DNA from: a virus
Lineage: Duplodnaviria > Heunggongvirae > Uroviricota > Caudoviricetes
DNA: 41,923 nt
IMG/VR virus record: IMGVR_UViG_2630968543_000002
Direction: 5' to 3' (one strand)
The notes under the pieces were generated by a model, which saw nothing but the letters and a program-made list of their open reading frames with translations, was not told the DNA's origin and ran no database searches. Shown piece by piece: positions 12,428-38,537 of the stretch. Position 1 is the stretch's first letter. The number at the start of each line of letters is the position of its first letter. Both the position numbers and the translations under genes were made by a program.

Positions 12428-12758
12428 ATCAGCAGCAGAGCGCAAAGCCGCTCAGAGAGCCAGACAAGCTGCATCTGGTGTGCGTAAGCTGGAGATTGTG
12501 CTTGATGCTCAGGAAATTGAAATGCTTGAGCGTAACTGTGCCGCGCGTCGCCCCGGGCGTGCGCCTTACGAATTTGGTGAGTATATAGCGTTACTGATCC
12601 GCCAAGATGATGCACGCGTGCACGGGCGTATAAAATCGATCAGCAGAAAACGTTGCGGTAAGTGCGGCGAGAGAGTTCCTGTGAATTCATGCCCGTGTAA
12701 TGGTGACTCGCAATGCTGGGTGACTAAAGGCTGGCATGAAACGAAATTAATAGTGTGA
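12420..12758 (+). CDS. Hypothetical protein with C-terminal Cys cluster (CGKCGERVPVNSCPCNGDSQC); last gene before the late operon, possible late-gene regulator (inference)
   Basis: 112-aa ORF; its stop codon lies inside the GTGACATGTCAC palindrome. Confidence 0.5.
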   Translation: MAKSAAERKAAQRARQAASGVRKLEIVLDAQEIEMLERNCAARRPGRAPYEFGEYIALLIRQDDARVHGRIKSISRKRCGKCGERVPVNSCPCNGDSQCWVTKGWHETKLIV

Positions 12759-12766
12759 CATGTCAC
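12755..12766. repeat. Perfect 12-bp palindrome GTGACATGTCAC, copy 1 of 3
   Basis: Direct reading. Confidence 0.7.
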
Positions 12767-12807
12767 GAGTAGATTATGCATGATGAATTTGATGGGTTTT
12801 GAATACT

Positions 12808-12834
12808 GCCGCCAACTATGGCGGCTTTATTTTG
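12808..12834 (+). terminator. Rho-independent terminator between the early-right genes and the late operon
   Basis: GCCGCCA-ACTA-TGGCGGC hairpin followed by TTTATTTTG. Confidence 0.55.
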
Positions 12835-12844
12835 CATGGTACTA

Positions 12845-12877
12845 TTACCACAACGGTAACAATTACCAGGGTGGTTA
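12845..12877. promoter_or_regulatory. Late-operon control region: perfect site TTACC-ACAAC-GGTAA (12845..12859) preceded by TACTAT, plus degenerate site TTACC-AGGGT-GGTTA (12863..12877) ending 2 nt before the terS start
   Basis: Direct reading. Confidence 0.55.
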
Positions 12878-12879
12878 TA

Positions 12880-13473
12880 ATGCCTGCTGAACCTAAAACC
12901 TATAAACGCAAATCAACGCAATTTAAGCCGCTCACAGCAATGCAGGAGGCTTATTGCCAGTCATACATCAAAACGCCTGAAAACCAGACTCAGGCTGCGA
13001 TTAACGCAGGATTCTCCCCAAATACAGCGGCAGTTAAAGCCAGTGTTATGATGCGCGATGAACGCATTCAAAAACGGATTGCCGAGTTGATGGAGGAGCG
13101 CAACAAACGAATGCGCGTCAGTGCTGATTACGTTCTCATGCGCCTGGTGGAGATCGACCAGATGGACGTGATCGATATCCTCAACGACGATGGGAGCCTT
13201 AAACCAATCCGTGAGTGGCCGAAAATCTGGCGCACTACGCTTAGCGGCTTTGATCTGTCATCGACCATCATGAACATGAACGAGGACTCGATAGAGACAA
13301 TCCTCAAAAAAATTAAATGGCCTGACAAGGTGAAGAACCTAGAACTGATTGGTAAGCACGTCGACGTCAACGCATTCAAAGAACGCCTGGATGTTAATGT
13401 GAATGTGACAATTGCTGATCGCATAGCGGCAGCCAGGAAGCGACTCAAAGAACGTCAGGATGGTAATCAGTGA
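12880..13473 (+). CDS. terS: Terminase small subunit
   Basis: Position directly upstream of and overlapping the large terminase (GTGA); basic HTH-like N-terminus; ORF opens at 12799 but a terminator and operators occupy 12808..12877, so ATG 12880 is preferred. Confidence 0.65.
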   Translation: MPAEPKTYKRKSTQFKPLTAMQEAYCQSYIKTPENQTQAAINAGFSPNTAAVKASVMMRDERIQKRIAELMEERNKRMRVSADYVLMRLVEIDQMDVIDILNDDGSLKPIREWPKIWRTTLSGFDLSSTIMNMNEDSIETILKKIKWPDKVKNLELIGKHVDVNAFKERLDVNVNVTIADRIAAARKRLKERQDGNQ

Positions 13474-14945
13474 CAGATGCAGCGTTATCTCCTGAAGAGC
13501 AGTTAATCGAAGATATTGCAGGGTTCACTAACGATCCGCTTGGCTATGCCCTCTATGCGTTCCCTTGGGGGGAAGAGGGGACTGAACTGGCACATGCTAC
13601 CGGTCCACGTCAGTGGCAGGCCGATGCGTTCCGAGAGATACGTGATCACCTGCAGAATCCAGAGACGCGTTATCAGCCGCTTATGCTGGCACGTGCTTCT
13701 GGTCACGGTATTGGTAAATCCGCATTCATCTCAATGCTCATCAACTGGGGCATGTCCACTTGCGAGGATTGTAAGGTCGTGGTGACCGCCAACACCGACA
13801 ACCAGCTACGAACGAAGACCTGGCCGGAAATTATCAAGTGGTCGAACCTTGCTATCACGAAAGACTGGTTTACCTGTACCGCTACCGCGATGTACAGCAA
13901 TGACCCTGGGCACGACAAGCGGTGGCGGGCTGACGCAATACCCTGGTCTGAGCACAACACTGAGGCATTCGCCGGACTACACAACGAGCGCAAACGCATC
14001 ATCGTGGTATTCGATGAAGCGTCGAACATTGCGGATCTGGTGTGGGAAGTTGCTGAGGGTGCGCTTACGGACGAAGACACTGAGATTATCTGGGTGGCGT
14101 TCGGGAACCCGACGCGTAACACCGGGCGTTTCCGTGAATGTTTCCGCAAGTACAAACACCGCTGGAAGTGTGCGCAGATTGACAGCCGGACGGTGGAAGG
14201 CACTAACAAACAGCAGTTGCAGAAATGGGTTGATGACTACGGGGAAGACAGCGACTTCGTTAAAATCCGTGTGCGCGGCATATTCCCTGATGCATCTGAA
14301 TTGCAGTTTATCCCTACCGGTCTTACTGACGAGGCAATGAAACGGGTGGTAACCGCTGCGCAGGTTGCACATGCTCCGGTGATAATCGGCGTTGACCCGG
14401 CGTACTCCGGCGTTGATGACGCTGTGATATACCTGCGGCAGGGGCTGCACAGTAAGGTGCTATGGACTGGAAACAAGACCACTGACGATCTGATTATGGC
14501 GAAGCGTATCGCTGACTTTGAAGACCAGTACCAGGCTGACGCAGTGTTCATCGACTTCGGTTACGGAACTGGTCTGAAGTCAATCGGTGACGGCTGGGGT
14601 CGTACATGGCAACTTGTTCCGTTCGGTGGCGCGTCTACTGACCCGCAGATGCTCAATAAGCGCGGGGAGATGTTCAACTCATGCAAGACGTGGCTGAGGC
14701 TGGGCGGCATGCTTGATGACCAGGAAACAGCAGACGACCTGTCGGCGGCAGAGTACAAAGTTCGAGTGGACGGTAAAATCGTTATCGAACCGAAGGAAGA
14801 TATCAAGGAGCGGCTTGGGCGTTCTCCTGGTAAAGGCGATGCGCTACTGCTGACGTTTGCGTTCCCTGTGTCGAAGCGTCTGCGAATTCCCGGGCAGCAG
14901 AACCAGCAAGGCAAGGCCATCACAGATTACGATCCCTATGCTTAA
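13470..14945 (+). CDS. terL: Terminase large subunit (ATPase and nuclease)
   Basis: 491-aa ORF; Walker A-like GHGIGKSA, acidic motifs (IIVVFDEASN, IIGVDPA) typical of TerL. Confidence 0.9.
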   Translation: MTDAALSPEEQLIEDIAGFTNDPLGYALYAFPWGEEGTELAHATGPRQWQADAFREIRDHLQNPETRYQPLMLARASGHGIGKSAFISMLINWGMSTCEDCKVVVTANTDNQLRTKTWPEIIKWSNLAITKDWFTCTATAMYSNDPGHDKRWRADAIPWSEHNTEAFAGLHNERKRIIVVFDEASNIADLVWEVAEGALTDEDTEIIWVAFGNPTRNTGRFRECFRKYKHRWKCAQIDSRTVEGTNKQQLQKWVDDYGEDSDFVKIRVRGIFPDASELQFIPTGLTDEAMKRVVTAAQVAHAPVIIGVDPAYSGVDDAVIYLRQGLHSKVLWTGNKTTDDLIMAKRIADFEDQYQADAVFIDFGYGTGLKSIGDGWGRTWQLVPFGGASTDPQMLNKRGEMFNSCKTWLRLGGMLDDQETADDLSAAEYKVRVDGKIVIEPKEDIKERLGRSPGKGDALLLTFAFPVSKRLRIPGQQNQQGKAITDYDPYA

Positions 14946-15019
14946 TCCGCTGGTGGGGATAATGTCGTTGATATCCTCTGATGAGGATAAAACAAAGCCA
15001 GCTCATCGGCTGGCTGTTT

Positions 15020-15031
15020 GTGACATGTCAC
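15020..15031. repeat. Perfect 12-bp palindrome GTGACATGTCAC, copy 2 of 3
   Basis: Direct reading; lies between convergent terL and the minus-strand ORF. Confidence 0.7.
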
Positions 15032-15035
15032 GGTG

Positions 15036-15455
15036 TTACTTAATGGCATTAAATCCAGCGTTGATGGCTTCCGCAATATTGATGGCTCTTGTTTTATCGA
15101 AGTGCCCATTCTGAATAAGCGTCGCATGCAGGCATTGTAACTTCATGTTGTATAAGTGTTCGCTCATGTAATCATGATCACTTTTTGCTTTAGCGTAAAC
15201 AGCGCGAGAAATATCAAACATATCGCCTTTTTCCATTTCAGAACGTTGTGCTGTTATCCAGTCATGGAACGTAACGCTAGTACCATGGTCTTCGCTAAGA
15301 GTTAACCCGGCCAGTCCCTCACTCTGAATTACTTCGTAATGCATTTCATTACCAGCAAAAACGCCATAAAAAACGCAGTCTTCAGCTTGAACGATACGAG
15401 AATATTTTAATGGCCATTCATTTAGATACTTAGCCAACATATCAATTGTTTTCAT
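15036..15455 (-). CDS. Hypothetical protein (139 aa) of unknown function, encoded opposite to the structural genes (moron-like)
   Basis: ORF with AAGGTGA Shine-Dalgarno 5 nt upstream; on the same strand and downstream of the phage tRNA; no recognisable motifs. Confidence 0.6.
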   Translation of the reverse strand: MKTIDMLAKYLNEWPLKYSRIVQAEDCVFYGVFAGNEMHYEVIQSEGLAGLTLSEDHGTSVTFHDWITAQRSEMEKGDMFDISRAVYAKAKSDHDYMSEHLYNMKLQCLHATLIQNGHFDKTRAINIAEAINAGFNAIK

Positions 15456-15466
15456 GATCTCACCTT

Positions 15467-15490
15467 AAAAAAATGCCCGGCGAACCGGGC
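15467..15490 (-). terminator. Rho-independent terminator between the tRNA and the minus-strand ORF
   Basis: GCCCGG-CGAA-CCGGGC hairpin followed on the minus strand by seven U (plus A-run 15467..15473). Confidence 0.6.
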
Positions 15491-15653
15491 GAACTGGAAG
15501 CAATGAGTTATGCCTTCCGTGGCTGTACGGGTTTACAGCATGAAGTCATCGCAATGGCGTCCTGCTGTAAAAAGGGCGGTGATAGTCCTTCAAGGGAAAC
15601 CATCACCGCCAAGCACCTGGAACTTCTGGCATCACGGTCCTTAGGCGTGATTC

Positions 15654-15730
15654 TGGCGCGGCATGCAGGATTCGAACCTGCGACCAACCGCTTAGAAGGC
15701 GGTTGCTCTGTCCAACTGAGCTAATGCCAC
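15654..15730 (-). tRNA. tRNA-Arg (anticodon UCU), phage-encoded, 77 nt with encoded CCA
   Basis: Manual fold: acceptor GUGGCAU/AUGCCGC, D-arm GCUC-AGUUGGACA-GAGC, anticodon stem ACCGC/GCGGU with loop CUUCUAA, T-arm GCAGG-UUCGAAU-CCUGC; close to, but distinct from, E. coli argU as recalled. Confidence 0.85.
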
Positions 15731-16052
15731 AACGCTGAGAGCACTTAGCCTGTTAAGGCGCCACACTTTGTCGCGGCTCCATAAATGCTCTCATCGTTGT
15801 ACCCTCGTCTCTTCCGAGGTGTCACACCGAATCGCCGGGATGGTGAATCCCCGTGCGCGGAATAAAACCGCTCGACTTGCACATTCCGGCTACCTGGTTC
15901 GTTTGCCCGAGCAAGGGAGGGTGCCCCTTAAACGTATCCAGACCGCTATCGGCGCATGTGCCATACGCCGTACTGCTCAAAATAAAAGCTCACCCCACCT
16001 GTTCAATTTAACGACAAGCCAGTCAGATTAGTAACTGGAGTGAATTCTTTGA

Positions 16053-16067
16053 TTACCTGAAAGGTAA
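16053..16067. promoter_or_regulatory. Perfect operator palindrome ATTACC-TGAAA-GGTAAT upstream of the portal operon; TATGTGGTT motif 44 bp downstream (16111..16119)
   Basis: Direct reading. Confidence 0.55.
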
Positions 16068-16157
16068 TAATTCGCGCATTAAATGTCAACTGTCTACGAT
16101 AAATAAATCATATGTGGTTAAATTGGTAATAATTTAATTGCGTACGGAGTCATTGAT

Positions 16158-16364
16158 ATGTGCATGGGTAGCTCACCATCAGTGCCTGCAACACCAGAAG
16201 TTCAGGCAGCACCACAGGAGCAGGATGCCGCCGTTGTTGATGCCCGCGACGAAGAAACTCGTCGCCGTCGCGCTGCTGCTGGTCGTAGTTCTACGCTGCT
16301 TACCGGTTCTCAGGGCGACACATCAACCGCTAATACCAGCGGTAAAACGCTGCTTGGTCAGTAA
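16158..16364 (+). CDS. Small hypothetical protein (68 aa, low complexity) upstream of portal
   Basis: Preceded by GGAGTCATTGA, the same 11-nt initiation region that precedes the portal start (16367..16377). Confidence 0.4.
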   Translation: MCMGSSPSVPATPEVQAAPQEQDAAVVDARDEETRRRRAAAGRSSTLLTGSQGDTSTANTSGKTLLGQ

Positions 16365-16378
16365 CCGGAGTCATTGAA

Positions 16379-18058
16379 ATGGCGGAAACAACTAAAGAGC
16401 GATTGAACAAACAGTTCGCACAACTTGAAAGCGAGCGTCAGTCGTTCGAGCCGCACTGGCGCGAGTTGAGTGATTACATCAACCCGCGTGGTTCCCGCTT
16501 TCTGACTTCTGAGGTCAACCGTAACGATCGACGCAATACGCGCATTATTGATTCGACCGGGACTATGGCGGCGCGCACTCTCGCCAGCGGCATGATGTCT
16601 GGTATCACAAGCCCCGCCCGTCCGTGGTTTCGCCTGGCTACGCCAGATCCTGAAATGATGGATTATGGCCCTGTTAAGTTGTGGCTTGAGGCGGTGCAGA
16701 ACCGCATGAACGATATGTTCAATAAGTCGAATCTCTACCAGTCGCTGCCGCAGTTATACGGAAGCCTCGGCACATACAGCACTGGTGCAATGGCAGTGCT
16801 GGAGGATGACGAGGACATCATTCGCACAATGCCATTCCCGATAGGCAGTTACTACCTGGCTAACTCACCTCGTGGCAGTGTGGACACCTGTTTTCGCAAG
16901 TTCTCTATGACTGTTCGTCAGCTTGTTCAGGAGTTCGGGCTAAATAACGTCAGCGAATCTGTAAAAAGCATGTGGGAAAGCGGCACCTACGAGAAGTGGA
17001 TTGAAGTGATGCATTCGGTTTACCCGAACATTGACCGCGATACATCGAAGCTGGATAGCAAGAACAAGCCATTCAAATCGGTTTATTACGAGGTTGGTGG
17101 CGATAACGACAAGTTGTTGCGTGAGTCCGGATTCGATGAGTTTCCAATTATGGCTCCGCGCTGGGAAGTTAACGGCGAAGATGTTTATGGATCATCATGC
17201 CCGGGTATGCTGGCGCTTGGACCTGTTAAGGCATTGCAGCTTCTCCAGAAGCGTAAGTCGCAGTTGATTGATAAAGCCACCAATCCGCCGATGGTTGCTC
17301 CGAATTCCCTCAAGAATCAGCGCGCCTCCCTTCTTCCTGGTGACATCACGTATATCGATCAGATTACTGGTCAGGATGGTTTCAGGCCTGCTTATCTGGT
17401 TAACCCCAGTACAGCAGATTTGGTGGCAGACATTCAGGACACTCGTCAAATCATTAACAGCGCCTACTTTGTCGATCTGTTCATGATGTTGCAGAACATC
17501 AATACCCGCTCGATGCCTGTGGAAGCGGTGATCGAAATGAAAGAAGAAAAACTTCTGATGTTGGGGCCGGTTCTGGAGCGCCTGAACGACGAATGTCTTA
17601 ATCCTCTCATTGATCGCTCTTTCTCGATGATGGTGCGTAAAAACATGCTGCCGCCACCGCCAGACGTGATGGAAGGTATGCCCCTGAAGGTCGAATACAT
17701 TTCCGTCATGGCTCAGGCGCAGAAGTCTATCGGCCTGTCCAGTCTGGCGTCCACGGTTAACTTCATTGGTCAACTTGCGCAAGCGAAACCAGAAGCTCTC
17801 GACAAACTCAACGTTGATCAGGCGATCGATGCATTCGCTGATATGTCCGGAGTGTCTCCAACCGTCATTGTTCCGCAGGAACAGGTTGAGCAGGCTCGCC
17901 AGCAACGGGCACAGCAACAACAGCAGCAACAAATGATGGCGATGGGGATGGCGGCGGCACAGGGTGCTAAGACGCTAAGCGAAGCTAAAACTTCGGATCC
18001 GAGTGTTTTGTCAGCTATGGCGAATGCAGTTAGTGGTCAGGGTGGGCAATCACAATGA
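16379..18058 (+). CDS. Portal protein (T7 gp8-like head-to-tail connector)
   Basis: 559-aa ORF directly after terminase; Gln/Met/Ala-rich C-terminus (QQQQQQQMMAMGMAAAQGA) resembles the T7 gp8 C-terminus as recalled. Confidence 0.8.
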   Translation: MAETTKERLNKQFAQLESERQSFEPHWRELSDYINPRGSRFLTSEVNRNDRRNTRIIDSTGTMAARTLASGMMSGITSPARPWFRLATPDPEMMDYGPVKLWLEAVQNRMNDMFNKSNLYQSLPQLYGSLGTYSTGAMAVLEDDEDIIRTMPFPIGSYYLANSPRGSVDTCFRKFSMTVRQLVQEFGLNNVSESVKSMWESGTYEKWIEVMHSVYPNIDRDTSKLDSKNKPFKSVYYEVGGDNDKLLRESGFDEFPIMAPRWEVNGEDVYGSSCPGMLALGPVKALQLLQKRKSQLIDKATNPPMVAPNSLKNQRASLLPGDITYIDQITGQDGFRPAYLVNPSTADLVADIQDTRQIINSAYFVDLFMMLQNINTRSMPVEAVIEMKEEKLLMLGPVLERLNDECLNPLIDRSFSMMVRKNMLPPPPDVMEGMPLKVEYISVMAQAQKSIGLSSLASTVNFIGQLAQAKPEALDKLNVDQAIDAFADMSGVSPTVIVPQEQVEQARQQRAQQQQQQQMMAMGMAAAQGAKTLSEAKTSDPSVLSAMANAVSGQGGQSQ

Positions 18059-18351
18059 CAGATTACGAAGACGATCAACTGAAAGAAGAAAACGCCCGTA
18101 AGCAACGTGACATGGCACAGCGTGAAATTGATGACATTCGCTTTGTCATGAGCAGTGAACAGGGGCGTCGCGTTGTCTGGTCGGTGCTGGAGAAAGGCCG
18201 GGTGTTTTCCGCTATCTCTCCGATGGATGCCATGGCAATGGCATTTAATGAGGGGCAACGCAATCTGGCGCTGGAACTGTTTCAGCGCGTTATGGCGCAT
18301 TGCCCTGAACAGTATTTGAAGATGGCCAAAGAGGCCAGTGAACAGGAGTGA
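18055..18351 (+). CDS. Hypothetical virion-module protein (98 aa)
   Basis: ATGA overlap with the portal stop. Confidence 0.5.
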   Translation: MTDYEDDQLKEENARKQRDMAQREIDDIRFVMSSEQGRRVVWSVLEKGRVFSAISPMDAMAMAFNEGQRNLALELFQRVMAHCPEQYLKMAKEASEQE

Positions 18352-18353
18352 TC

Positions 18354-19049
18354 ATGAGTTTATTTGAGCGTTTGCTGTATCGCCGTCTTTGCAATGAGCA
18401 ACAAGTCGATGGTGGGGCAGCACCGGCTGCGTCAGAACCGTCAGCGCATGCAGGTGATAACCCTGCTCCAGCTGGTGATCCATCACAACAGGAAGGTGAT
18501 AAGCCACAACCTGTTGTTGATGTCGATAAACCTGATGATGAAAAAAAATCTGAAAACGATAAGCAGGGTGAAAAAAAGGACGGCGATAAACCAGAGGGTG
18601 CGCCGGAGAAGTACGAATTTCATGCTGCCGAAGGCGTAGAGCTGGATACAGAAGCGTTGAAGGAATTCGAGCCAGTGGCGCGAGAACTTAACCTGACCAA
18701 CGAGCAAGCGCAAAAGCTGGTTGATGCTTATCCGAAGATTCTGGCAGGTGTTCAGCAGCGCCAGGCAGAAGCCTGGCAGAAAACAACCGAGCAGTGGGCT
18801 GCGGATGTAAAAGCTGACAAAGAAATCGGTGGCGACAAGTTGATTTCTAACCTTAGCGCCGCACAGCGTGCGCTTGACCAGTTCGGGACACCTGAACTCA
18901 AAGAATATCTGAACACCACCGGGCTGGGTAATCACCCTGATCTGGTCAAAACGTTCGTGAAAATCGGAAAGGCGATGTCTGAAGATGGCATGGTCACCGG
19001 TGGTAATGAAGGCCAGCGTAGTGCGGCCGAAGTGCTCTATGGCAAATAA
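18354..19049 (+). CDS. Putative scaffolding / capsid assembly protein
   Basis: Position between portal and major capsid; highly acidic Lys/Asp/Glu-rich N-terminal half; GGAG Shine-Dalgarno. Confidence 0.65.
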   Translation: MSLFERLLYRRLCNEQQVDGGAAPAASEPSAHAGDNPAPAGDPSQQEGDKPQPVVDVDKPDDEKKSENDKQGEKKDGDKPEGAPEKYEFHAAEGVELDTEALKEFEPVARELNLTNEQAQKLVDAYPKILAGVQQRQAEAWQKTTEQWAADVKADKEIGGDKLISNLSAAQRALDQFGTPELKEYLNTTGLGNHPDLVKTFVKIGKAMSEDGMVTGGNEGQRSAAEVLYGK

Positions 19050-19057
19050 GAGAGGAA

Positions 19058-20050
19058 ATGACAATGGCTGTTAAAGGCTTAACTGCGCTAACGCTGGCTG
19101 ACTGGGGTAAGCGCGTCGATCCAGATGGGAAAGTCGATAAGATTATCGAGCTTCTCGGTCAAACTAACCCGATCCTTCAGGATATGCCTTTTGTCGAAGG
19201 TAACCTTCCTACCGGACACAAAACCACCATTCGTTCTGGTTTACCTTCAGCTACCTGGCGTTTGCTGAACTATGGCGTACAGCCAAGCAAATCAACCACA
19301 GTGCAGGTAACCGATTCCGTTGGCATGCTGGAAACCTATGCTGAAGTCGATAAGTCACTGGCTGATCTGAACGGTAATACCGCCGAATTCCGCCTGTCTG
19401 AAGACCGCGCATTTATTGAAGCGATGAATCAGCAGATGGCGCAGACGCTGTTTTATGGTGATTCCAGCGTTAACCCTCAGCAGTTTATGGGACTGTCCTC
19501 CCGCTATTCCAGCCTGTCTGCGGGTAATGCTCAGAACATCATTGATGCTGGTGGCACGGGTACAGATAACACCTCAATCTGGTTAGTGGTGTGGGGCGAA
19601 AACACCGTGCATGGCATCTTCCCGAAAGGGAAGAAGGCTGGCATCCAGATGGAAGATAAAGGCCAGGTGACACTGGAAGATGCTAATGGCGGCAAGTACG
19701 AAGGCTATCGCACCCATTACAAATGGGATAACGGACTTGCTCTGCGTGACTGGCGTTATGTTGTTCGCATTGCAAACATTGATGTCAGCAATCTTTCAGA
19801 ACCTTCCTCTGCCGCAAATATTGCGAAGTTGATGGTTAAAGCACTGCATCGCATTCCAAACCGTGGCATGGGCCGCCCGGTGTTCTACATGAACCGCACT
19901 GTAGGCCAGGCTCTTGATCTGCAGTCTCTGGAGAAAACATCTCTGGCGATTAGCGTAAAAGAGACTGAAGGCGAGTGGTGGACGTCATTCCGTGGTGTAC
20001 CAATCCGTGAAACTGATGCGCTTCTGGAAACAGAAGCCCGCGTGGTGTAA
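19058..20050 (+). CDS. Major capsid protein
   Basis: 330-aa ORF following the scaffold gene; GAGAGG Shine-Dalgarno; size and position typical of a T7-like or HK97-fold major capsid protein. Confidence 0.75.
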   Translation: MTMAVKGLTALTLADWGKRVDPDGKVDKIIELLGQTNPILQDMPFVEGNLPTGHKTTIRSGLPSATWRLLNYGVQPSKSTTVQVTDSVGMLETYAEVDKSLADLNGNTAEFRLSEDRAFIEAMNQQMAQTLFYGDSSVNPQQFMGLSSRYSSLSAGNAQNIIDAGGTGTDNTSIWLVVWGENTVHGIFPKGKKAGIQMEDKGQVTLEDANGGKYEGYRTHYKWDNGLALRDWRYVVRIANIDVSNLSEPSSAANIAKLMVKALHRIPNRGMGRPVFYMNRTVGQALDLQSLEKTSLAISVKETEGEWWTSFRGVPIRETDALLETEARVV

Positions 20051-20101
20051 CGCCTGTTATTAACCTGTGGGTCGCAACAGGCCCACTAATGGAGAAAGAA
20101 G

Positions 20102-20539
20102 ATGATCACCGACAAACTGTTGATGTTCTCCGAAGCACAGGCGGTAACTGATACCGCGGCTTCTACTGACGTAATCGATCTCGGTCCAATTGACGGAAAC
20201 CGTCGCGATATCGGCGTGGGTTATCCGCTTGAGTTTTGGGCGCTGGTTAACGAAGCCGCCACGGCAAGTGGTGAGGCAACTGTAAACATCCAGTTGCAGA
20301 CGAGTGAGAATAACAGCTCATGGTCCACTATTTATGATAGTGGCGCACTGGCAAAGGCCACCCTGACAGCAGGTAAGCGAGTTGTTTCTGCAAAGGTGCC
20401 AGCCGGTGTTCAGCGATATCTGCGTGTTAACTACTCCGTCGCAACTGGCCCACTAACGGCTGGCAAATTCACTGCGGGTATCAATCTTGATGTTGATGCC
20501 AATACGCCGTATCCGATCCGCTCAAAAGTAACTGGTTAA
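20102..20539 (+). CDS. Hypothetical structural protein (145 aa), possible capsid decoration or adaptor
   Basis: GGAG Shine-Dalgarno; position after the major capsid gene. Confidence 0.5.
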   Translation: MITDKLLMFSEAQAVTDTAASTDVIDLGPIDGNRRDIGVGYPLEFWALVNEAATASGEATVNIQLQTSENNSSWSTIYDSGALAKATLTAGKRVVSAKVPAGVQRYLRVNYSVATGPLTAGKFTAGINLDVDANTPYPIRSKVTG

Positions 20540-20549
20540 GGTGATATTG

Positions 20550-20885
20550 ATGTCAGGTGAGAAACCAAGATACCGCGTTCTGCGCCTCTCTCATATCCAT
20601 AACACTCTGTGGCCGGAGGGGGCAGAAATCGAATACGAAGGTGAGCCAGGTAGCGCACTGGAACCTGTTAACGATGCAGCCAGACAGGCAAAAGCAAAAG
20701 TTGCAGGAAAGGTGTCAATGGCAGCAACCAGCACCAAAATCATCAACGATGTGTCAGATGATGGTGAACTGGATAAGCTCCGTGAAGAGTACAAATTGCT
20801 CTTTAACGAGAAGCCACACCATAACGCCAAAGCAGAAACGCTCCGCGAGAAGATCGCAGATAAGCGTAAAGAACTGGGCGTGTAA
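20550..20885 (+). CDS. Hypothetical structural-module protein (111 aa)
   Basis: ATG at 20550 with AAGGTGA upstream; followed by a terminator. Confidence 0.5.
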   Translation: MSGEKPRYRVLRLSHIHNTLWPEGAEIEYEGEPGSALEPVNDAARQAKAKVAGKVSMAATSTKIINDVSDDGELDKLREEYKLLFNEKPHHNAKAETLREKIADKRKELGV

Positions 20886-20902
20886 GCCTCGCGAATCAGA
20901 CA

Positions 20903-20923: not shown

Positions 20924-20935
20924 GCAGGAGTGTAT

Positions 20936-24335: not shown

Positions 24336-24799
24336 TGATCGATGTTCAAATTATTCCCGCTACCGAAGAGCATCTTCAGATGATTTTGCCGGATGTTCGT
24401 CAGGCTGATATTGACGAACTGTATGCGGTATCGCTGATGACTACCGAAGATGCGCTGCGCGTTGGTCTGCGCACTGCGACTATGGCCTGGTCAGGATTTG
24501 CGAACGGAGAACTAGTAACCATGTTTGGCGTATCTCCGGCGTCAATGATCGGTGGAAATGGTACGCCCTGGCTGGTCGGTACCAGCCGTATTGAAAAATA
24601 TCAGAAGACATTTCTTCGCCACTGCCGACCTGTATTGCAGCAGATGCTGGCAGTTTATCCGCGCCTGGAAAACTATGTCGACGAGCGAAACCATGTTGCC
24701 AAAGCATGGCTGCACTGGCTTGGATTCAGGCTTGAAGAATCCGCGCCTTATGGTGCTCTTGGTCTTAATTTCCACAGATTTCACATGGAGAGAAAATAA
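24335..24799 (+). CDS. Virion-associated protein (gp13 position)
   Basis: 154-aa ORF; TGATG overlap with the upstream gene. Confidence 0.5.
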   Translation: MIDVQIIPATEEHLQMILPDVRQADIDELYAVSLMTTEDALRVGLRTATMAWSGFANGELVTMFGVSPASMIGGNGTPWLVGTSRIEKYQKTFLRHCRPVLQQMLAVYPRLENYVDERNHVAKAWLHWLGFRLEESAPYGALGLNFHRFHMERK

Positions 24800-25344
24800 T
24801 GTGCGATCCGGTTATTGCTGGTGGCGCAATGCTCGCCATGAGTGGCATTCAGGCATACACCCAGTACCAACAGGGAAAGTATGCCTCGAAGGTTGCAGAA
24901 GCGAACGCAGATATAGCCACAGCTCAGGCAAATGATGCAATAAACAGAGGTAACGCTGAAGCTGAGCAACGGCGCAGAGAGACCCGACAGCGGCTTGGTA
25001 CACAGGCGGCGACAATGGGGGCTACCGGCGCTGATTTATCTACAGGTAACGCGCTGGATATATTTGGCGACACTGCCCAGTTTGGCGCTCTTGATTCGCT
25101 GACGACGGTGAATAACGCGCAACGCGAGGCTTACGGTTATCAGGTTCAGGCTGCCAACTATAAAGCAGAAGCCAGTTCAGCCCGTAAACAGGGGAATGTG
25201 GGAGCAGCAACAACATTGCTCACTGCGCCTCTGAAGGCATACGGTGCGTACCAGATGTTTGGTGGGACGTGGAGTCCGTTTACTCAAAGCACTCCTGCGC
25301 CAATCGGGGCAGCAGCAGGAACCAGATTACCCGGAGGATTATAA
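24799..25344 (+). CDS. Internal virion protein B-like (T7 gp14-like)
   Basis: N-terminus MCDPVIAGGAMLAMSGIQAY resembles T7 gp14 MCWAAAIPIAISGAQAISGQ as recalled; GGAGAG Shine-Dalgarno. Confidence 0.65.
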   Translation: MCDPVIAGGAMLAMSGIQAYTQYQQGKYASKVAEANADIATAQANDAINRGNAEAEQRRRETRQRLGTQAATMGATGADLSTGNALDIFGDTAQFGALDSLTTVNNAQREAYGYQVQAANYKAEASSARKQGNVGAATTLLTAPLKAYGAYQMFGGTWSPFTQSTPAPIGAAAGTRLPGGL

Positions 25345-27857
25345 TGCCAGTCGTACCAACAGTATCCGGACGTCAGGTTGAGAGCCGTGGAGTTCAGTCA
25401 GCAGGCTTGCAGACGTTTTCTCAGCCAGGTATTGGTGATGCTTTTGTTCGGGCAGGGGCAGAGGCAATTGATGTTTTTGGTCAGGCAAAACAGCGTGCCA
25501 ATATCGCTCTGGCTCAGGAGGCATCTCTTAACCTCAGTCAGATAAGCAGCGATCTGCTGAATAATCCTGAAACAGGATTGCTTAATCTGAAAGGGAAAAA
25601 TGCTATTGGAAAAGGCCATGAGTATACGCAGCAGTTTGATGCTCAGGTCGAACAACTGGCTATGTCGCTGCCGGATGAACAGGCTCGTAATGCTTTCATG
25701 CAGCAGGCGCAGCAGCAGCGCATTCAGTTCACTACGCAGGCAGGGCGGCACGAGATAGGGCAAATAAATGCCTACGAAGAAGGCCAGTTTCAGGCTACGC
25801 TGCTGAACAATGGTAAAAATGCCGCAGCATTGTATGGCGACAACGCCGCATACGTATTGGCTAATAAGCAAACTTTCCAGCAAATTGAGGATTACGGCAT
25901 TGCACATGGCTGGAGTGACGAGCAAATCCAGGCCAAGAAAATCGAGTTTAAAGAAGCAACAGCAAAAGCAACTGCTCAAAATGCTATTGGAGCAAACTAT
26001 CTTCAGGTAAGACAGCAAAACGGCGAGTTAAGCGATACTGCTGTTGGATCTCGCCGTGCTGTAGCAGATAGTGGCTCTTCCGATCGTACCCGCGGTATAC
26101 GCAACAATAACCCCGGCAATCTTGAATACAGCAAAACTAATCCGTGGGTTGGGCAGACTGGTGATGATGGTCGCTTTGCCAAATTCGAAACCCCTGAACA
26201 CGGTATTCGTGCATTAGGGCGGAACCTGATGTCGTATCAGCGGCAGGGTATTGATACCGTCAGCGAGATAATTAATCGCTGGGCACCGCCTACTGATAAA
26301 AATGACACTATGTCGTATATCAAAGCAGTGTGCGAACAACTTGGCGTTTCTGCTGATGAGCCTCTCGATGCATCAAATCCTGATACCCTGAAGGCGCTTT
26401 GTGCAGCCATTATCCATCATGAAAACGGTAGCCAGCCATACAGTGATCAGCAGTTAACTGCAGGTGTTAGTGCCGCGCTGGGGCTTTCTCAGCTACCGAC
26501 AAAAAATAAACGTTATACCGGTGTAGCCTGGTTCGATGCTTTAAGTGAATCAGATCAGGCCAGCGTGTTGCGACAGACTGATGCACTAGCCAGACAACAG
26601 CAGGCTGAATATAAAACGATGCTCGACAGTCGGGTTCGCGATGCGACGGCTGCGTATATGCGTGGCGTTGAATTTCCTAACCCACCTGGTGAGGATGATT
26701 TTATTGCAGCTTATGGAGTCAGAGAAGGAAACCTGCGATATACCGAGTTTAAGAATACGCAGATCGCCGGACAGTATATAGGCTCTTTCCGCAACATGCC
26801 GACAAGCAGCATTACAGCATATGTTGAGCAATTACGCCCGGATACTGGTGAGACAGGGGAGGGATATGCGGCACGCGCAGCTCTTTATGACAACGTTGTT
26901 TCGGCTGCAAATCAGGTGATAAAGCAGCGGCAATCGGATCCTGTGCAGTTCTCTCTTGCCGCCGGACAGGCAAAGCCTATCGACATGAGCAATAAGGATA
27001 ACTTTGGACAGAGTGTTGCCTTGCGTGCTGCTCAGGTTAGTGATCTTGCCAAGTCATATGGCACTCCACTGACGTTCTTTTCCAAAGACGAGGCCAATCA
27101 GATCGGTGTTTTCTTTCGTGATGCGCCCGTTTCCCAACAGGCAGCATATCTCGATACCATCAGGCAAAGCACTGGTGGTGGGCAGGTGTATATGTCAGCA
27201 CTACAGCAGATCAGTGCCAACGCTCCATCTGCTGCCGTTGCCGGGATACTGATGGATAAGCCTGGTGGTATTTTGGCAGAAAAAAACTGGTTTAATCCGG
27301 ATGTTTCCGTGTCTCCTGAAACCGCTGCGCAGACAATTCTTGCTGGCGCGGCGGCTCGTAAAGGTACTGATGATGCGAAAGGTATTCCGATGCCTAAAGA
27401 TGCTGATCTTCGCCTTGAGTTTTCTGACATGGTGAAGGATGCATTTGCTGGTGATGCTCAGGGGGCATCAATGGCATACGAGATCGCAAAGGACTATTAC
27501 GCTGGTGTGATGGCGAAAAAAGGCGTGGTATCAGGCGAAATTGACAATGATATCTGGAAACAGGCTGTTAACGTAGCTACAGGTGGCGTGCATGATTATA
27601 ACGGAATGGGGAATGTCCTTTTGCCGTGGGGAATGTCTGCAGAGCAATTCGATAAGCAGGTTAATCAGGCTTGGAATGAACAAGTTGTCGGCACCGGGAT
27701 AAAAACACCGCCTGGTCAGTATGGTTTGCAAAGTTACGGCGATAGTCAGTACCTGGTGAAACTTGGCACTGGTTATCTGCTGAAAGATGATGGTTCTCCT
27801 GTTGTTCTTGATCTGACACAGAAGCGTCAGAGATTCTCCGGAGATATTCCGCAATGA
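25344..27857 (+). CDS. Internal virion / ejection protein (gp15 position) with conserved GIRNNNPGNLEY motif domain
   Basis: ATG at 25344 with GGAGG 7 nt upstream (ORF opens at 25269); about 837 aa. Confidence 0.6.
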   Translation: MPVVPTVSGRQVESRGVQSAGLQTFSQPGIGDAFVRAGAEAIDVFGQAKQRANIALAQEASLNLSQISSDLLNNPETGLLNLKGKNAIGKGHEYTQQFDAQVEQLAMSLPDEQARNAFMQQAQQQRIQFTTQAGRHEIGQINAYEEGQFQATLLNNGKNAAALYGDNAAYVLANKQTFQQIEDYGIAHGWSDEQIQAKKIEFKEATAKATAQNAIGANYLQVRQQNGELSDTAVGSRRAVADSGSSDRTRGIRNNNPGNLEYSKTNPWVGQTGDDGRFAKFETPEHGIRALGRNLMSYQRQGIDTVSEIINRWAPPTDKNDTMSYIKAVCEQLGVSADEPLDASNPDTLKALCAAIIHHENGSQPYSDQQLTAGVSAALGLSQLPTKNKRYTGVAWFDALSESDQASVLRQTDALARQQQAEYKTMLDSRVRDATAAYMRGVEFPNPPGEDDFIAAYGVREGNLRYTEFKNTQIAGQYIGSFRNMPTSSITAYVEQLRPDTGETGEGYAARAALYDNVVSAANQVIKQRQSDPVQFSLAAGQAKPIDMSNKDNFGQSVALRAAQVSDLAKSYGTPLTFFSKDEANQIGVFFRDAPVSQQAAYLDTIRQSTGGGQVYMSALQQISANAPSAAVAGILMDKPGGILAEKNWFNPDVSVSPETAAQTILAGAAARKGTDDAKGIPMPKDADLRLEFSDMVKDAFAGDAQGASMAYEIAKDYYAGVMAKKGVVSGEIDNDIWKQAVNVATGGVHDYNGMGNVLLPWGMSAEQFDKQVNQAWNEQVVGTGIKTPPGQYGLQSYGDSQYLVKLGTGYLLKDDGSPVVLDLTQKRQRFSGDIPQ

Positions 27858-29656
27858 GTTACTTTGGCCTTAATCCAGTAAACCAGAATCAGCAACTTGA
27901 CGAAGCAGCATCAAATCCAGCGGGCTTTAACAGCGATGTTGGTTTTTTCGACAATGCTGTAGGAGCGGCATTGTCTGGTTTGTACTCCGGGCTGGTGGCA
28001 AAGCCAGATCAGTTGCTATGGGCAGGGATGGATAAAATCGTATCCCCGATTGCTCAGTTTATTAACGAAAACACCTCGCTCAATGACACTTCAGTTTCAT
28101 ACATTGCTGAGCAGAGAAAACTAGCAGAGCAGCAGGTTAAGCGGCTGACGCCTGATGCCGCGACAACCGGAACCGCCGGGCAGGTCCTTTATGGGTTGTT
28201 CGATATGGGCGGGCAGGCTGTTGTCGGTACAACGCTCGGTGGTCCGGTCGGAGGTGCTGCGGCGGTAACTTCTCTACAGGGTTTTTCTGAGTTTGAACGG
28301 CTGACAGCACAGGGTGTTGATTTCAGGACGGCGCAGGAAGCTGGATTAGTGCAGGGTATTACTGCTGGTGCCGGAACACTGATCCCTATGAGCCTCGGGT
28401 TACGTGCGGGTGGTGCGCTGGCGGAAGGTGTGGCGGCTCAGCTTGCGCGGACGGGTGAAAGTTCAGTGCGACGCGCTGCAGCAACAGCAGTACGTGCAAC
28501 GCCAGATATTGCCTATGCCGCAGGTACAAATATTGCGTTCGGTATGGCACAGCGTGGGCTTACTGCTAAAACGCTTCGTGATGGTGGCTATAGCGAAATG
28601 GCTAACCAGTATGATGTGTTGGATCGACAGGCAATTGCTATTGATGCTGTTCTTGGGGTGGCGTTTGGTGGTGTCGGCAGATTTATTAACTCTCGCGGCG
28701 AGTCTACAAGCGCACCAAATTTTTCACCAGTTGATATCGATGCTGCACTGGCGGCGAATGCCGCTCATCATGCTGAAATTGATATTGCTCCCGGCGTGCC
28801 GATCAACGTGCTTTCGCGTAATTCACACATTCAGGCTCTGCGAAAAGCCATGTCTGATGTTAGCCAGGGGAGACCTGTAGACGTTGCCAGCATTGTTGAG
28901 TCTGCATCTTTCAGTGAAATTCCTGGGCGCAAGAGTCTGCTGTCTCAGGCAGTTAATGAGGCTCTGTCATCAGTAGATGATGGAGTAACGGCGCGCGCTA
29001 TAGAAAATCGGTTGCTTGAAGAACAGGCCGCACAGCTTTTGCCGCGTGGCGATAGACAGGTTTACCAGTCTGAAATCGCTAATAGCCAACGAATTATTGA
29101 AAATCTCACTGAACAGCGCGCACAAATTCTTGCAGAAGATCCAACCGGTAGCGGTAAGGCTTTATCTCGTGCTCGATCAGATAAACAGGCCAGACTTCGC
29201 GATATTGACCAACGAATCAGGCAGGCACAAGAACGCCTGGAATTTTCTCGTAACGCGTTGGCACCGCATGAGCCTGGCGGTCAGTTTTTTGAAGCTCGAG
29301 CAGAACTGGCACGGCGACTGCAGGTAGAAAGTGAACTTAATGCTCAGGCTGTTTCATTCTATAAAACAGCAGAGGTCAGGACGCCAGACGAAGTAGCTCC
29401 TTTTGAGCCTGATAAAATATTGCAACAGGCAGAACAAAAAATGATGGCGGATCAGGCAGGAGATATTGATCTGCGCATAGCTGAAGACTCGCTGCTTGAA
29501 TCACCTGACATGATAATCACCGTGCTGGATGATGATGGTAATCCACAATCGCGCAGCGCGCGTGAAGTACTGGATGAAGCGAACAGGGAAAGTGAGCAGG
29601 CAATACAGGATTCCAGCCTGTTTGATGTCGCTGTGGCGTGTTTCTTGAGAGGTTAA
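27854..29656 (+). CDS. Internal virion / ejection protein (gp16-like, part 1)
   Basis: 600-aa ORF; ATGA overlap with the upstream gene; Gly/Ala-rich hydrophobic N-terminal third. Confidence 0.55.
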   Translation: MSYFGLNPVNQNQQLDEAASNPAGFNSDVGFFDNAVGAALSGLYSGLVAKPDQLLWAGMDKIVSPIAQFINENTSLNDTSVSYIAEQRKLAEQQVKRLTPDAATTGTAGQVLYGLFDMGGQAVVGTTLGGPVGGAAAVTSLQGFSEFERLTAQGVDFRTAQEAGLVQGITAGAGTLIPMSLGLRAGGALAEGVAAQLARTGESSVRRAAATAVRATPDIAYAAGTNIAFGMAQRGLTAKTLRDGGYSEMANQYDVLDRQAIAIDAVLGVAFGGVGRFINSRGESTSAPNFSPVDIDAALAANAAHHAEIDIAPGVPINVLSRNSHIQALRKAMSDVSQGRPVDVASIVESASFSEIPGRKSLLSQAVNEALSSVDDGVTARAIENRLLEEQAAQLLPRGDRQVYQSEIANSQRIIENLTEQRAQILAEDPTGSGKALSRARSDKQARLRDIDQRIRQAQERLEFSRNALAPHEPGGQFFEARAELARRLQVESELNAQAVSFYKTAEVRTPDEVAPFEPDKILQQAEQKMMADQAGDIDLRIAEDSLLESPDMIITVLDDDGNPQSRSAREVLDEANRESEQAIQDSSLFDVAVACFLRG

Positions 29657-29661
29657 ATTAA

Positions 29662-32136
29662 ATGAGACAGGAATGTATACAAGCGGTCCAGCAGGCGGCG
29701 CAGCGCACGTTAACGGCGCGAGAAATACAGAACATTGAAGACCGCATTTATCGAAATATGCGCTCCATTGCTCGTGATGACCCGATGTCGTGGAGACAAC
29801 TTTCCGAATCAGAGCGGCTATATCGTGCAGCACAATTGGCATCTGAAGAATTACAGCGAGAAGCGGCATTAAAGAAACGTCGTGTGGCCCTCACTATATC
29901 CGCACGTCAGAGATTGGATAAATTTATCAATAGCTATCAAGGGGCTGATGGGAAACTTGGCGCTCTTAACCGTACTATTGCTTTTAATGCAGACGGTAAA
30001 TCGAATTTCCTCTCTGTTGAGTCCAGAACAAAAGCCACTCGTGATTATGCATTGAGTCAATTGCAAGAGGCATTTGAAGCAGTTGATCCTCGCTTTTTTG
30101 GCCTGTTTGAAGATGAAGCTGGCGTGCGTGACCTGGTATATGAAATGCGAGGGCAAAATACTGGCAATGCTAAAGCAAGAAAAGGTGCTAAGGCGTGGAG
30201 AGAAGTGACAGATCTACTGCGCCGCCGGTTTAATGATGCTGGTGGGGACATTGGCTATCTCGAAAACTGGGGAATCCCTCAACATCATTCTATGGAAAAG
30301 GTTGGGGCGGTATCAAAGGATAAGTGGGTTAGCGATGTTATAGGTAAGCTGGATCGCAAATATTATATCCGAGCCGATGGACAACTGATGAACGATTCCG
30401 AGTTGTCTGCATTTCTTGGAGAGGCTTATAACACGATCGCTACTGGTGGGCTGAATAAGCTTACTGATACCGGAATGCGAATTTCAGGCGCACGTGCTAA
30501 CCGTGGTAATACATCACGACAGATACATTTCAAAGATGCAGATTCCTATCTGCAATATCAGCAACTTTATGGCGATCGCTCTCTATGGGAAATCATGGTC
30601 GGTCACCTGGAAGGTATCAGTAAAGATATTGCACTGGTGGAAACATATGGCCCAAACCCCGATCATGTTTTCCGCTCTCTTCTTGATCAGGTGAAGGCAG
30701 AAACGGCAACAGCTAACCCGAGTAAAACCGGTAAAGTCGAGCGGCTGGCGAACAATACAGAGAATCTGTACAACTTTATTTCCGGAAAGACACAGCCTGT
30801 AGCGAATCCGCACATCGCGCGATGGTCTGACAATATCCGCAACTGGCTGGTTGCCAGCAGACTCGGATCCGCGTTGCTGTCATCGTTCTCTGATCTTGGA
30901 ACCATGTATCTGTCTGCGAAGGTGACCAACCTTCCAATGAACCAGTTATTCCGCAACCAGCTTGAAGCTATGGACCCAACGAACCGTACAGAACTTGCGC
31001 GGGCGCGCCGCGCTGGTCTGGCGATGGAATCTCTACTTGGCAGCGTTAACCGCTGGGCGATGGATAATATGGGGCCGTCTGTGTCTCGTTGGGCTGCAAC
31101 GGCGGTAATGCGTGCCAGTGGGCTTACAGCATGGTCAGATGCGCACAAGCGCGCCTATGGCGTAACCATGATGGGAAGCTTGGGAGAAGTAGTGTCACGG
31201 ACACCAGACCTTCGTAGCCTCGATGATTCTGATTTTCGCATCCTGAAAAGCAAAGGGATTACTGACACAGACTGGAGCGTATGGAAGCTGGCGCAACAGG
31301 AGGACTGGGGGAACGGCAATAATACGATGCTGACACCGGAAAGCATTATGCGTATCCCTGATTCAGCAGTTAAACATCTTGGTGAGCCTGAACGCGTGAA
31401 ATTTGAGGCAATGCGTAAACTGCTCGGTGCCATAACTGAAGAAGTTGATATGGCTGTTATTACACCGGGAGCACGTGAGCAACTGATAACCGGTTCTGGT
31501 ATTCAGCGTGGAACATGGAAAGGTGAATTAACGAGAAGTGTTTTCCTGTTTAAATCGTTCCCTATCTCGGTGGTTATGCGTCACTGGTCACGCGCTATGG
31601 GTATGCCGTCTGCTGGTGGGCGTGCGGCATATATTGCGACGTTTATTGCCAGTACGACCATTCTTGGCGCTTTGTCGCAGCAACTTAACGACCTTGCGTC
31701 TGGTCGTAATCCTCGCGAGATGACAGGAGAAGATGCTGCTAAATTTTGGCTTGGTGCTCTACTGAAAGGTGGTGGTCTTGGCCTTTACGGTGACTTTTTA
31801 TTGTCAGATCACACTAGGTACGGAAGCGGCGCGCTGGCGTCGATGCTTGGCCCGGTAGCTGGTCTGGTTGATGACGTAGTGAAGATTGCTCAGGGCATAC
31901 CGTTAAATGCTGTGGAAGGGAAGAGTGAGCAGACTGGTGGTGATCTGGTTAAGCTGGGGAAAGGTCTGATGCCAGGTGCGAATCTCTGGTACTTGAAGGC
32001 GGCTCTCGATCACATGATCTTTAACCAGATGCAGGAGTATTTTTCACCAGGTTATTTGCGTAAAATGGAGCAACGTTCGAAGAAAGAGTTTAACCAGACA
32101 TACTGGTGGCGACCACAGGATGTCACTCCGCAATAA
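29662..32136 (+). CDS. Internal virion / ejection protein (gp16-like, part 2)
   Basis: 824-aa ORF; last gene of the core-protein operon. Confidence 0.55.
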   Translation: MRQECIQAVQQAAQRTLTAREIQNIEDRIYRNMRSIARDDPMSWRQLSESERLYRAAQLASEELQREAALKKRRVALTISARQRLDKFINSYQGADGKLGALNRTIAFNADGKSNFLSVESRTKATRDYALSQLQEAFEAVDPRFFGLFEDEAGVRDLVYEMRGQNTGNAKARKGAKAWREVTDLLRRRFNDAGGDIGYLENWGIPQHHSMEKVGAVSKDKWVSDVIGKLDRKYYIRADGQLMNDSELSAFLGEAYNTIATGGLNKLTDTGMRISGARANRGNTSRQIHFKDADSYLQYQQLYGDRSLWEIMVGHLEGISKDIALVETYGPNPDHVFRSLLDQVKAETATANPSKTGKVERLANNTENLYNFISGKTQPVANPHIARWSDNIRNWLVASRLGSALLSSFSDLGTMYLSAKVTNLPMNQLFRNQLEAMDPTNRTELARARRAGLAMESLLGSVNRWAMDNMGPSVSRWAATAVMRASGLTAWSDAHKRAYGVTMMGSLGEVVSRTPDLRSLDDSDFRILKSKGITDTDWSVWKLAQQEDWGNGNNTMLTPESIMRIPDSAVKHLGEPERVKFEAMRKLLGAITEEVDMAVITPGAREQLITGSGIQRGTWKGELTRSVFLFKSFPISVVMRHWSRAMGMPSAGGRAAYIATFIASTTILGALSQQLNDLASGRNPREMTGEDAAKFWLGALLKGGGLGLYGDFLLSDHTRYGSGALASMLGPVAGLVDDVVKIAQGIPLNAVEGKSEQTGGDLVKLGKGLMPGANLWYLKAALDHMIFNQMQEYFSPGYLRKMEQRSKKEFNQTYWWRPQDVTPQ

Positions 32137-32145
32137 GGATGAGAA

Positions 32146-32286
32146 ATGATTGCTTTTATTCTTGTTGTGTTTGCGCTTGTTGCACTTGGCGTTATGAACC
32201 GTAAATGTATCATTGACGATGGCGAATTTGCTGTTGCAGTTATTTTGATATTATCTGGTGTAGCAGGGTACATAGGCTTGTCATAA
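32146..32286 (+). CDS. Small hydrophobic peptide (46 aa, two predicted membrane helices); not in the ORF track
   Basis: Hand translation MIAFILVVFALVALGVMNRKCIIDDGEFAVAVILILSGVAGYIGLS; AAGGATGAG 5 nt upstream; followed by palindrome and terminator. Confidence 0.35.
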   Translation: MIAFILVVFALVALGVMNRKCIIDDGEFAVAVILILSGVAGYIGLS

Positions 32287-32293
32287 CGTGAGC

Positions 32294-32305
32294 GTGACAT
32301 GTCAC
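32294..32305. repeat. Perfect 12-bp palindrome GTGACATGTCAC, copy 3 of 3
   Basis: Direct reading. Confidence 0.7.
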
Positions 32306-38531: not shown

Positions 38532-38537
38532 AAAAAA

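Follow-up and report, generated by a model that had tools for sequence, protein, structure and literature searches.

The 41,923-nucleotide stretch analyzed here in full (IMG/VR virus record IMGVR_UViG_2630968543_000002, hereafter the window) is a prophage of the phiV10/epsilon15-like type (Uetakevirus) and carries three copies of a perfect 12-bp palindrome, GTGACATGTCAC, which we discuss here as a candidate operator of a small regulator encoded by the phage itself. The window is 97% identical to phages HEMP4, phiv142-3, and phiV10 across most of positions 12000-33000, and identity to epsilon15 is ~77%; its gene roles were placed by way of the annotated phiV10 and epsilon15 records. The putative regulator gene, 12420-12758, is the last of the early-right genes, and the first palindrome, site A, lies over its stop codon; a terminator, a sequence resembling a repressor operator, and terS follow. 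Sites B and C lie at the ends of the terminase and virion blocks. The parts of the locus are, in order:

12420..12758, plus strand: gene of the candidate cognate protein, 112 aa, predicted ribbon-helix-helix (RHH) plus C4 zinc ribbon, phrog_536
12755..12766, no strand: site A, the "home" site, an exact match overlapping the regulator stop codon TGA at 12756-12758
12808..12835, plus strand: intrinsic terminator (also given as 12808-12825) from a terminator scan, 41 nt downstream of site A and before terS (ATG at 12881)
14996..15015, minus strand: intrinsic terminator of the minus-strand cargo gene, from the terminator scan, 4 nt from site B
15020..15031, no strand: site B, an exact match flanked by the hairpin on the terL side and by the 3' end of the cargo gene on the minus strand
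15036..15455, minus strand: exchangeable cargo gene, 139 aa, phrog_4846 (list of open reading frames [ORFs] and phrog hit), with its stop 4 nt from site B
32149..32287, plus strand: 45-aa ORF for a PhiV10p21-like membrane protein, phrog_7892, with its stop 6 nt before site C
32294..32305, no strand: site C, an exact match 3' of the last virion-block gene, abutting a plus-strand terminator
32306..32331, plus strand: intrinsic terminator (also given as 32306-32323) from the terminator scan, beginning at the base next to site C

Exact matching on either strand of the whole window places GTGACATGTCAC at 12755-12766, 15020-15031, and 32294-32305 only, the three copies that the initial annotation had reported. 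Its claim of rarity also holds, in that 100 dinucleotide-preserving shuffles produced no copy, with the difference that its expectation of about 0.005 copies becomes 0.0025 when computed from base composition (0.037 for the looser GTGACNNGTCAC). When up to two mismatches are tolerated, one extra site appears, GTGACATGGCAC at 18107, within an ORF; this is the chance level, and the site is not kept in epsilon15, Tyrion, or SPN1S. One-mismatch sites in relatives likewise occur near the chance rate, at positions that are not conserved. The flanks of sites A, B, and C have no common sequence outside the 12 bases; the copies are therefore not parts of a longer repeat, and a longer repeat or mobile element was dropped as an explanation because the similarity stops there. 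The sites do share a setting. On the working strand of each terminator the order is stop codon, palindrome, terminator at all three, with a gap of 0-6 nt from stop codon to site, and each copy sits, as first proposed, at an operon end where modules meet: A between the early-right and late genes, B between terL and the tRNA side, and C at the end of the virion block.

The palindrome also occurs at these junctions in related phages, which the initial annotation had proposed to check: the copy number is exactly three in each of epsilon15, Tyrion, and SPN1S, in the same three places as in the window, despite divergent flanks. phiV10 has two exact copies; a further one, with a single mismatch, is divided between the two ends of its linear record. 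That record (NC_007804.2) was opened within site A, so that it ends in ...GTGA and begins with CATGTTAC, and the joined ends read GTGACATGTTAC, with one mismatch that may be real or may be an end-of-assembly error. An orthologous site C lies 1-3 nt ahead of a hairpin in phiV10, epsilon15, Tyrion, and SPN1S, and the placement of site A over the regulator stop recurs in epsilon15, Tyrion, SPN1S, N15-like phages, and a distant prophage locus, L171. Among close IMG/VR relatives, 79 of 80 carry the copies expected within the sequence compared. In 15 diverse loci aligned on site B, conservation is 100% at each position of the 12-mer, against a mean of 65% for the left flank and 56% for the right, and the hairpin beside it shows compensatory stem changes between relatives (gccagc/gctggc versus gcccgc/gcgggc). 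By their number, their shared positions, and this conservation, the 12-mer sites are non-random and under selection.

Beyond the epsilon15-like phages the site accompanies one gene. With the product of 12420-12755 as query, tblastn found homologues in 154 phage records, from phages of Vibrio, Escherichia, Salmonella, Klebsiella, Yersinia, Aeromonas, Enterobacter, and Pectobacterium; distant lineages were sampled query by query. Unrelated phages that bear the gene hold one to three sites, usually one at the gene's stop. At least nine lineages have a site at the gene or close to it, and the further sites in each genome occupy non-homologous places. The general motif that emerges is GTGAC-NN-GTCAC, in which the half-sites GTGAC and GTCAC are fixed and the central dinucleotide is free: it is AT in the window, TG in N15, AC, GC, or CC in Vibrio phages, and AG, CT, GC, or GT in other lineages. 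This variability undoes the proposal of the initial annotation that the 12-mer, through its CATG, is recognized by the prophage methyltransferase or by a nuclease. Such a recognition site (CATG/ACATGT, for the methyltransferase or for a restriction or homing nuclease) would fit an MT-A70 adenine methyltransferase that the prophage does encode at 1449-2096 and the CATG of the window version. The centre varies between lineages, however, so CATG is not the conserved part; MT-A70 is absent from the ORFs shared with N15, ZF40, Chlobot, and K233 and is thus not common to the other motif-bearing phages; and the regulator family has no conserved catalytic-type residues. A 12-bp site present at three copies per genome is, moreover, atypical for methyltransferase recognition, and we find this reading hardly credible. 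A defense-system component was dropped as a candidate, with zero PADLOC hits.

The individual lineages differ in where the sites fall. The Pectobacterium myovirus ZF40 has GTGACATGTCAC itself 3 nt past the regulator stop and two further copies within gp08 and gp12, and the lambdoid phage Chlobot has one copy, 7 nt past the regulator stop. In N15, GTGACTGGTCAC lies over the gene 46 stop, a second copy within repA, and a third upstream of the antirepressor region. N15-like phages together carry 105 sites in 883 kb (49 loci) versus 0.84 expected, all of them in these three positional classes, and N15-type sites are invariant even inside the repA coding sequence, where adjacent codons vary. Copies inside coding sequence and away from junctions, which the initial annotation would have counted against its reading, are thus absent from the window but present in relatives of other genera (N15 and ZF40). 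In the clade of regulators 53-100% identical to the cluster representative P0124, which shares 52% identity with the window protein, a site occurs at the regulator stop or 9 nt past it in 19 of 24 loci, and most have site B too. Three distant prophage loci with homologues only 31-36% identical have two sites each, placed over the regulator stop (L171), just before its start (L170), or as a tandem pair between convergent genes (L172). An Aeromonas phage carries two copies of a one-mismatch variant, GTGACCGGACAC; there and in L170 a site lies 3-25 nt upstream of the regulator's own start codon, directly before its ribosome-binding site. Of the three sites in Vibrio phage K233 (GTGAC-AC/GC-GTCAC), two precede start codons, those of gene 0032 and terS, by 18-19 nt. 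These two K233 sites (~21296 and 35890) also lie 46-52 nt downstream of a shared TTATACGCG, an arrangement that may represent a common promoter or leader.

A six-frame comparison bears out the association with the gene, since no window ORF other than 12420-12758 has homologues in N15, ZF40, Chlobot, and K233 alike. Four phages with a related terL and without a regulator homologue (two P22-like Salmonella phages, Sodalis phiSG1, and Pseudomonas Ab31) contain zero sites in 175 kb; Ab31 has epsilon15-like virion genes and a Q gene. A terminase or pac site was dropped for the same reasons: the motif accompanies the regulator into N15, Chlobot, and ZF40, whose terminases are unrelated, and is missing from the phages with a related terL. 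The P2-like loci L141 and L008, whose homologues are distant, have no GTGACNNGTCAC site in the 6 kb and 20 kb examined, so this branch of the regulator family may recognize another motif. In both P2-like loci the homologue comes directly after replication gene A and ahead of a variable island, whose proteins have CTD9, MC5, and AAA_15/AAA_23 domains in L141 and an Smc-like annotation in L008.

A protein binding site, one of the functions first suggested for the 12-mer, is the function we favor, on the grounds of its dyad half-sites, its conservation against drifting flanks, and its co-occurrence with a gene of DNA-binding fold. The protein belongs to the family of epsilon15 gp49, PhiV10p55, and N15 gp46 (phrog_536), which also includes proteins of phages SPN1S, phiKO2, and ZF40 and occurs widely among temperate phages that infect Enterobacterales, Vibrio, and Aeromonas. 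The predicted fold is RHH plus C4 zinc ribbon, with a conserved basic, arginine-rich N-terminal helix, and a search of a viral structure library returned a fragment of the same family as its sole match. Homologues of the SPN1S/SPC32H type (SPN1S, 38348-38656) lack ~10 residues of the basic N-terminal helix and start MATTTTRRQNLLELELVL; phages of this type keep three perfect sites despite the shortened helix. In the PDB, the three top hits for the family profile are two TraR entries and YbiI, at E values of about 0.03 only, and an hhalign comparison of the family with TraR gave 52%. None of 56 family members matches the Pfam zf-dskA_traR model at E up to 1, and two fold searches do not list TraR or DksA. 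The TraR tip motif, DxxDxA (PMC9239242), cannot be placed equivalently in the regulator because the helix is fused to the RHH domain. With a weak profile hint and no Pfam or fold-search backing, an RNA polymerase binder of the TraR/DksA type was not adopted as a reading.

The half-sites GTGAC and GTCAC are also those of matS, the site of the Ter macrodomain organizer MatP of E. coli, and the 12-mer could accordingly be bound by a protein of the host (MatP or some unknown factor), with the phage gene merely linked to it. The hosts of the gene family (Enterobacterales, Vibrio, and Aeromonas) match the clade that has MatP. On the other hand, matS sites lie in the Ter macrodomain of the chromosome and the phage sites on temperate phage genomes of several genera, and MatP combines a four-helix bundle with a coiled coil where the phage regulator has a C4 zinc ribbon; a profile comparison detected no MatP homology of the family (probability 0.7%). 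The matS consensus is 13 bp long, GTGAC[AG]N[TC]GTCAC, a sequence that prophages reportedly avoid (PMC3603311). The phage site is 12 bp long with a 2-nt centre in place of the RNY of matS, and the spacer is 2 nt, not 3, at 27 of 27 exact sites in nine full phage genomes. The matS 13-mer is absent from the window and from seven of eight related genomes, the one true copy being in K233. True matS/MatP membership was therefore dropped for its wrong spacing and lack of sequence homology. A host protein would also leave unexplained both the position at the regulator stop and the site-free enterobacterial phages that lack the gene, which makes this explanation highly doubtful; the near-identity to a site that prophages otherwise avoid is a curiosity.

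We posit that the 12-mer is the operator of the phage's own regulator and that it acts as a direction-independent barrier at unit boundaries, a statement to which, as a whole, we assign a probability of roughly 0.55. That the 12-mer is the cognate site of the protein encoded at 12420-12758 appears probable; that the effect of the protein at its sites is that of a barrier, whether as a roadblock or as a repressor, we suggest only tentatively. The sites, their conservation, their link to the gene, the predicted fold, and the boundary positions are observed, whereas the binding of the RHH/zinc-ribbon protein to the sites and its effect there we infer. A dimer of the protein would sit on GTGAC-NN-GTCAC with the RHH β-sheet over the variable centre, while other parts of the protein would read the two invariant GTGAC half-sites. 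The sites mark the end of the early-right operon, at the regulator's own stop codon, and the ends of the terminase and virion blocks. Once the early operon has been expressed, bound protein would form a barrier to traffic from either direction and could thereby keep the early, terminase, virion, and minus-strand cargo units more strictly apart. As islands that stay invariant amid otherwise variable DNA, the sites would also have become points of cargo-gene exchange, as a secondary consequence. Several features favor a barrier or repressor: (i) most RHH proteins that have been characterized are repressors; (ii) the site is symmetric; (iii) sites occur at convergent junctions, namely, B and C in the window and the tandem pair in L172; (iv) sites lie within early genes of ZF40 and N15; and (v) sites lie directly before the regulator's own ribosome-binding site in L170 and the Aeromonas phage.

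The position of site A invites comparison with the Q system of lambda, in which qut lies in PR' and is followed by tR'. The last early product could act as a Q-like timer: bound just 3' of its gene, it would allow RNA polymerase to pass the adjoining terminators, so that early transcription runs on into terS-terL and virion-block transcription runs over the cargo islands to the tailspike and lysis genes. The two systems are alike in the last-early-gene position, in a presumed site downstream, and in the terminator and late genes beyond it: the regulator gene closes the early-right operon right before terS, and site A is followed by a terminator, as in lambda Q, PR', and tR'. Uetakeviruses have no annotated Q, Ab31 has a Q and neither a regulator homologue nor sites, and the site precedes the hairpin on the working strand of each terminator. 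A promoter-like GTGACA-17/18-TAAATT/CATGAT overlaps site A in several lineages, in the window as a weak match (GTGACA-18-CATGAT, 9 of 12). Sites B and C have no such match, however, leaving two of the three sites promoter-free, and the promoter-like context is missing in N15, in ZF40, and in arrangements in which a ~70-codon ORF follows site A. The terminator at site B is on the minus strand, so that read-through there would give antisense RNA to terL. N15, ZF40, and Chlobot hold the regulator-site pair plus an annotated Q, and the regulator resembles no Q family, with no likeness to Q-lambda, Q21, or Q82 in Pfam, PDB, or fold searches. The intragenic early-gene sites of N15 and ZF40 misfit a loading site, and the repressor operators annotated in the epsilon15 record before terS, gp3, and the tailspike gene (ATTACC-N5-GGTAAT) suggest separate promoters. 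We consider a Q-like timer unlikely. Also dropped was a conserved promoter whose spacer would contain the site (in the window, TTAATA-17-TAGATT), because it is not kept in epsilon15 or in relatives with a LexA-box insert after site A.

In the window, ATTACCACAACGGTAAC at 12844-12860, between the site A terminator and terS, matches the epsilon15 prophage-repressor operator, which suggests that the prophage repressor may repress the late blocks directly. The 12-mer itself was dropped as the operator of that repressor, for which the epsilon15 record gives a different sequence.

That the sites are a recombination linker promoting module exchange, the other function first suggested, holds as a description of the DNA around them. 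The flank left of site B stays constant, and within 1-7 nt on its right the DNA switches to one of at least six unrelated cargo sequences. Directly after site A, 17 loci have a ~70-codon ORF (in L018, at 10357-10569), of which the window retains, at 12779-12805 between site A and the terminator, an 8-codon remnant (MHDEFDGF and a stop); in other relatives a LexA-box promoter followed by a UmuD-like gene takes this place. The phage also encodes RecE/RecT-type recombination functions, as seen by comparison with the phiV10/epsilon15 annotation. A passive linker with no binding protein, for which these inserts and functions would speak, nevertheless has no need of a perfect dyad with a free centre, and it gives no reason for the conservation of copies within repA of N15-like phages or within ZF40 genes. 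It would not follow one gene through podoviruses, myoviruses, siphoviruses, and a linear plasmid-prophage, nor vanish where the gene is missing, and 12 bp is very short for homology-driven exchange. A linker of this kind is accordingly quite improbable, and we interpret the module-junction character as a consequence, the sites being an invariant functional island flanked by exchangeable DNA. The first gene of the cargo island right of site B varies among close relatives, and in some of them a minus-strand mini-ORF (MKYEFDGF and a stop) with a 3' end homologous to that of the remnant abuts site B. In a sister clade of prophages (L151, 10348-10400; similar in L147, L152, and L157-L168), TTGACT-17-TACTGT lies 6 nt past site A and is overlapped by a strong LexA box, TACTGTTTAAATATACAGTA, with the UmuD-like gene beyond it; by its sequence, this type of insert is an SOS-controlled moron between the regulator and terS.

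Because the window copies would be transcribed right after a stop codon and before a terminator hairpin, the palindrome could instead work as RNA, forming a hairpin in termination, processing, or translation that is perhaps bound by the arginine-rich N-terminal helix. A Shine-Dalgarno sequence follows the site after 0-8 nt in N15, Chlobot, the L018-type loci, K233, and the Aeromonas phage; phage intergenic gaps are short, however, so that any intergenic site lands near a ribosome-binding site. The hairpin itself would have 4 bp and a 4-nt loop, at -1.2 kcal/mol and with a z score of about 0 versus shuffled sequence. Its stem letters are invariant across lineages and show no covariation, and the Aeromonas GTGACCGGACAC breaks a pair without compensation in both copies. 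Rfam has no matches at the sites, and the predicted fold of the regulator is an RHH that binds double-stranded DNA. A known RNA family or stable hairpin was dropped on the Rfam and folding-energy results, and an RNA element in general is very unlikely.

Compared with known systems, the pair looks like a regulator with dispersed dyad operators, unusual for the position at the 3' end of its own gene, the adjoining terminators, the combination of RHH and zinc ribbon, and the likeness to matS. It resembles RHH repressors (Arc, Mnt, CopG, omega, and antitoxins of the ParD/MazE type) in predicted fold, in small size, in its short dyad operator, and, in some lineages, in an autoregulation-like site upstream of the regulator's own gene. 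It differs from them in that the phage site lies mostly at the gene's own 3' end and at operon ends by terminators rather than at its own promoter, and in that the regulator adds a basic N-terminal helix and a zinc ribbon and has no partner toxin. A short operator dispersed over a mobile genome, with some copies intragenic or distant from promoters, is known from the OB sites of KorB (RK2) and the C1 operators of P1; these systems belong to the ParB-type and C1 families, have many more sites, and act by demonstrated repression. In lambdoid mosaics, short conserved boundary ("linker") sequences stand where modules join. The phage 12-mer is likewise found at module and cargo joins but differs from such linkers in its dyad with a free centre, in its intragenic copies in other genera, and in a presence tied to one gene. 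A bolder possibility, which we regard as improbable, is that an RHH protein with a zinc module, at matS-like sites at unit ends, acts directly on RNA polymerase as an antiterminator or a programmable aid to termination (a fourth Q-like class), bridges or organizes phage DNA as MatP does, or displaces SMC-type complexes.

None of the records inspected annotates the 12-mer sites; that of epsilon15 marks repressor, IHF, RNase III, and integrase sites elsewhere. A literature search found no description of this protein-site pair, nothing on late regulation of epsilon15-like phages or on N15 gp46, and, in the library searched, no paper that gives the 12-mers in a phage context, although the original epsilon15 genome paper may mention them. 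If the reading as operator is right, a precise DNA motif and a few target positions can be assigned to a regulator family previously annotated by similarity only. It would also bear on the timing and insulation of late genes in epsilon15-like phages, which have no annotated Q and whose late genes are broken by minus-strand cargo islands, with the sites exactly at those boundaries. Since the sites mark spots where cargo is swapped, they are useful for reading prophage mosaics and for engineering.

Other elements lie within the cargo islands beside the sites. The island right of site B includes a tRNA-Arg gene (anticodon TCT) at 15654-15730 on the minus strand. In the island right of site C, the minus-strand ORF 33120-33857 is 49% identical to N15 gene 30, annotated as the antirepressor Ant, and just upstream of it Rfam places a C4 antisense RNA (33861-33948, minus strand) and an isrK RNA (33967-34043, minus strand). 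From these matches, 33120-34043 looks like an antirepressor module of the P1/N15 style, controlled by antisense RNA; the third N15 copy of the motif lies just upstream of the equivalent antirepressor region of N15.

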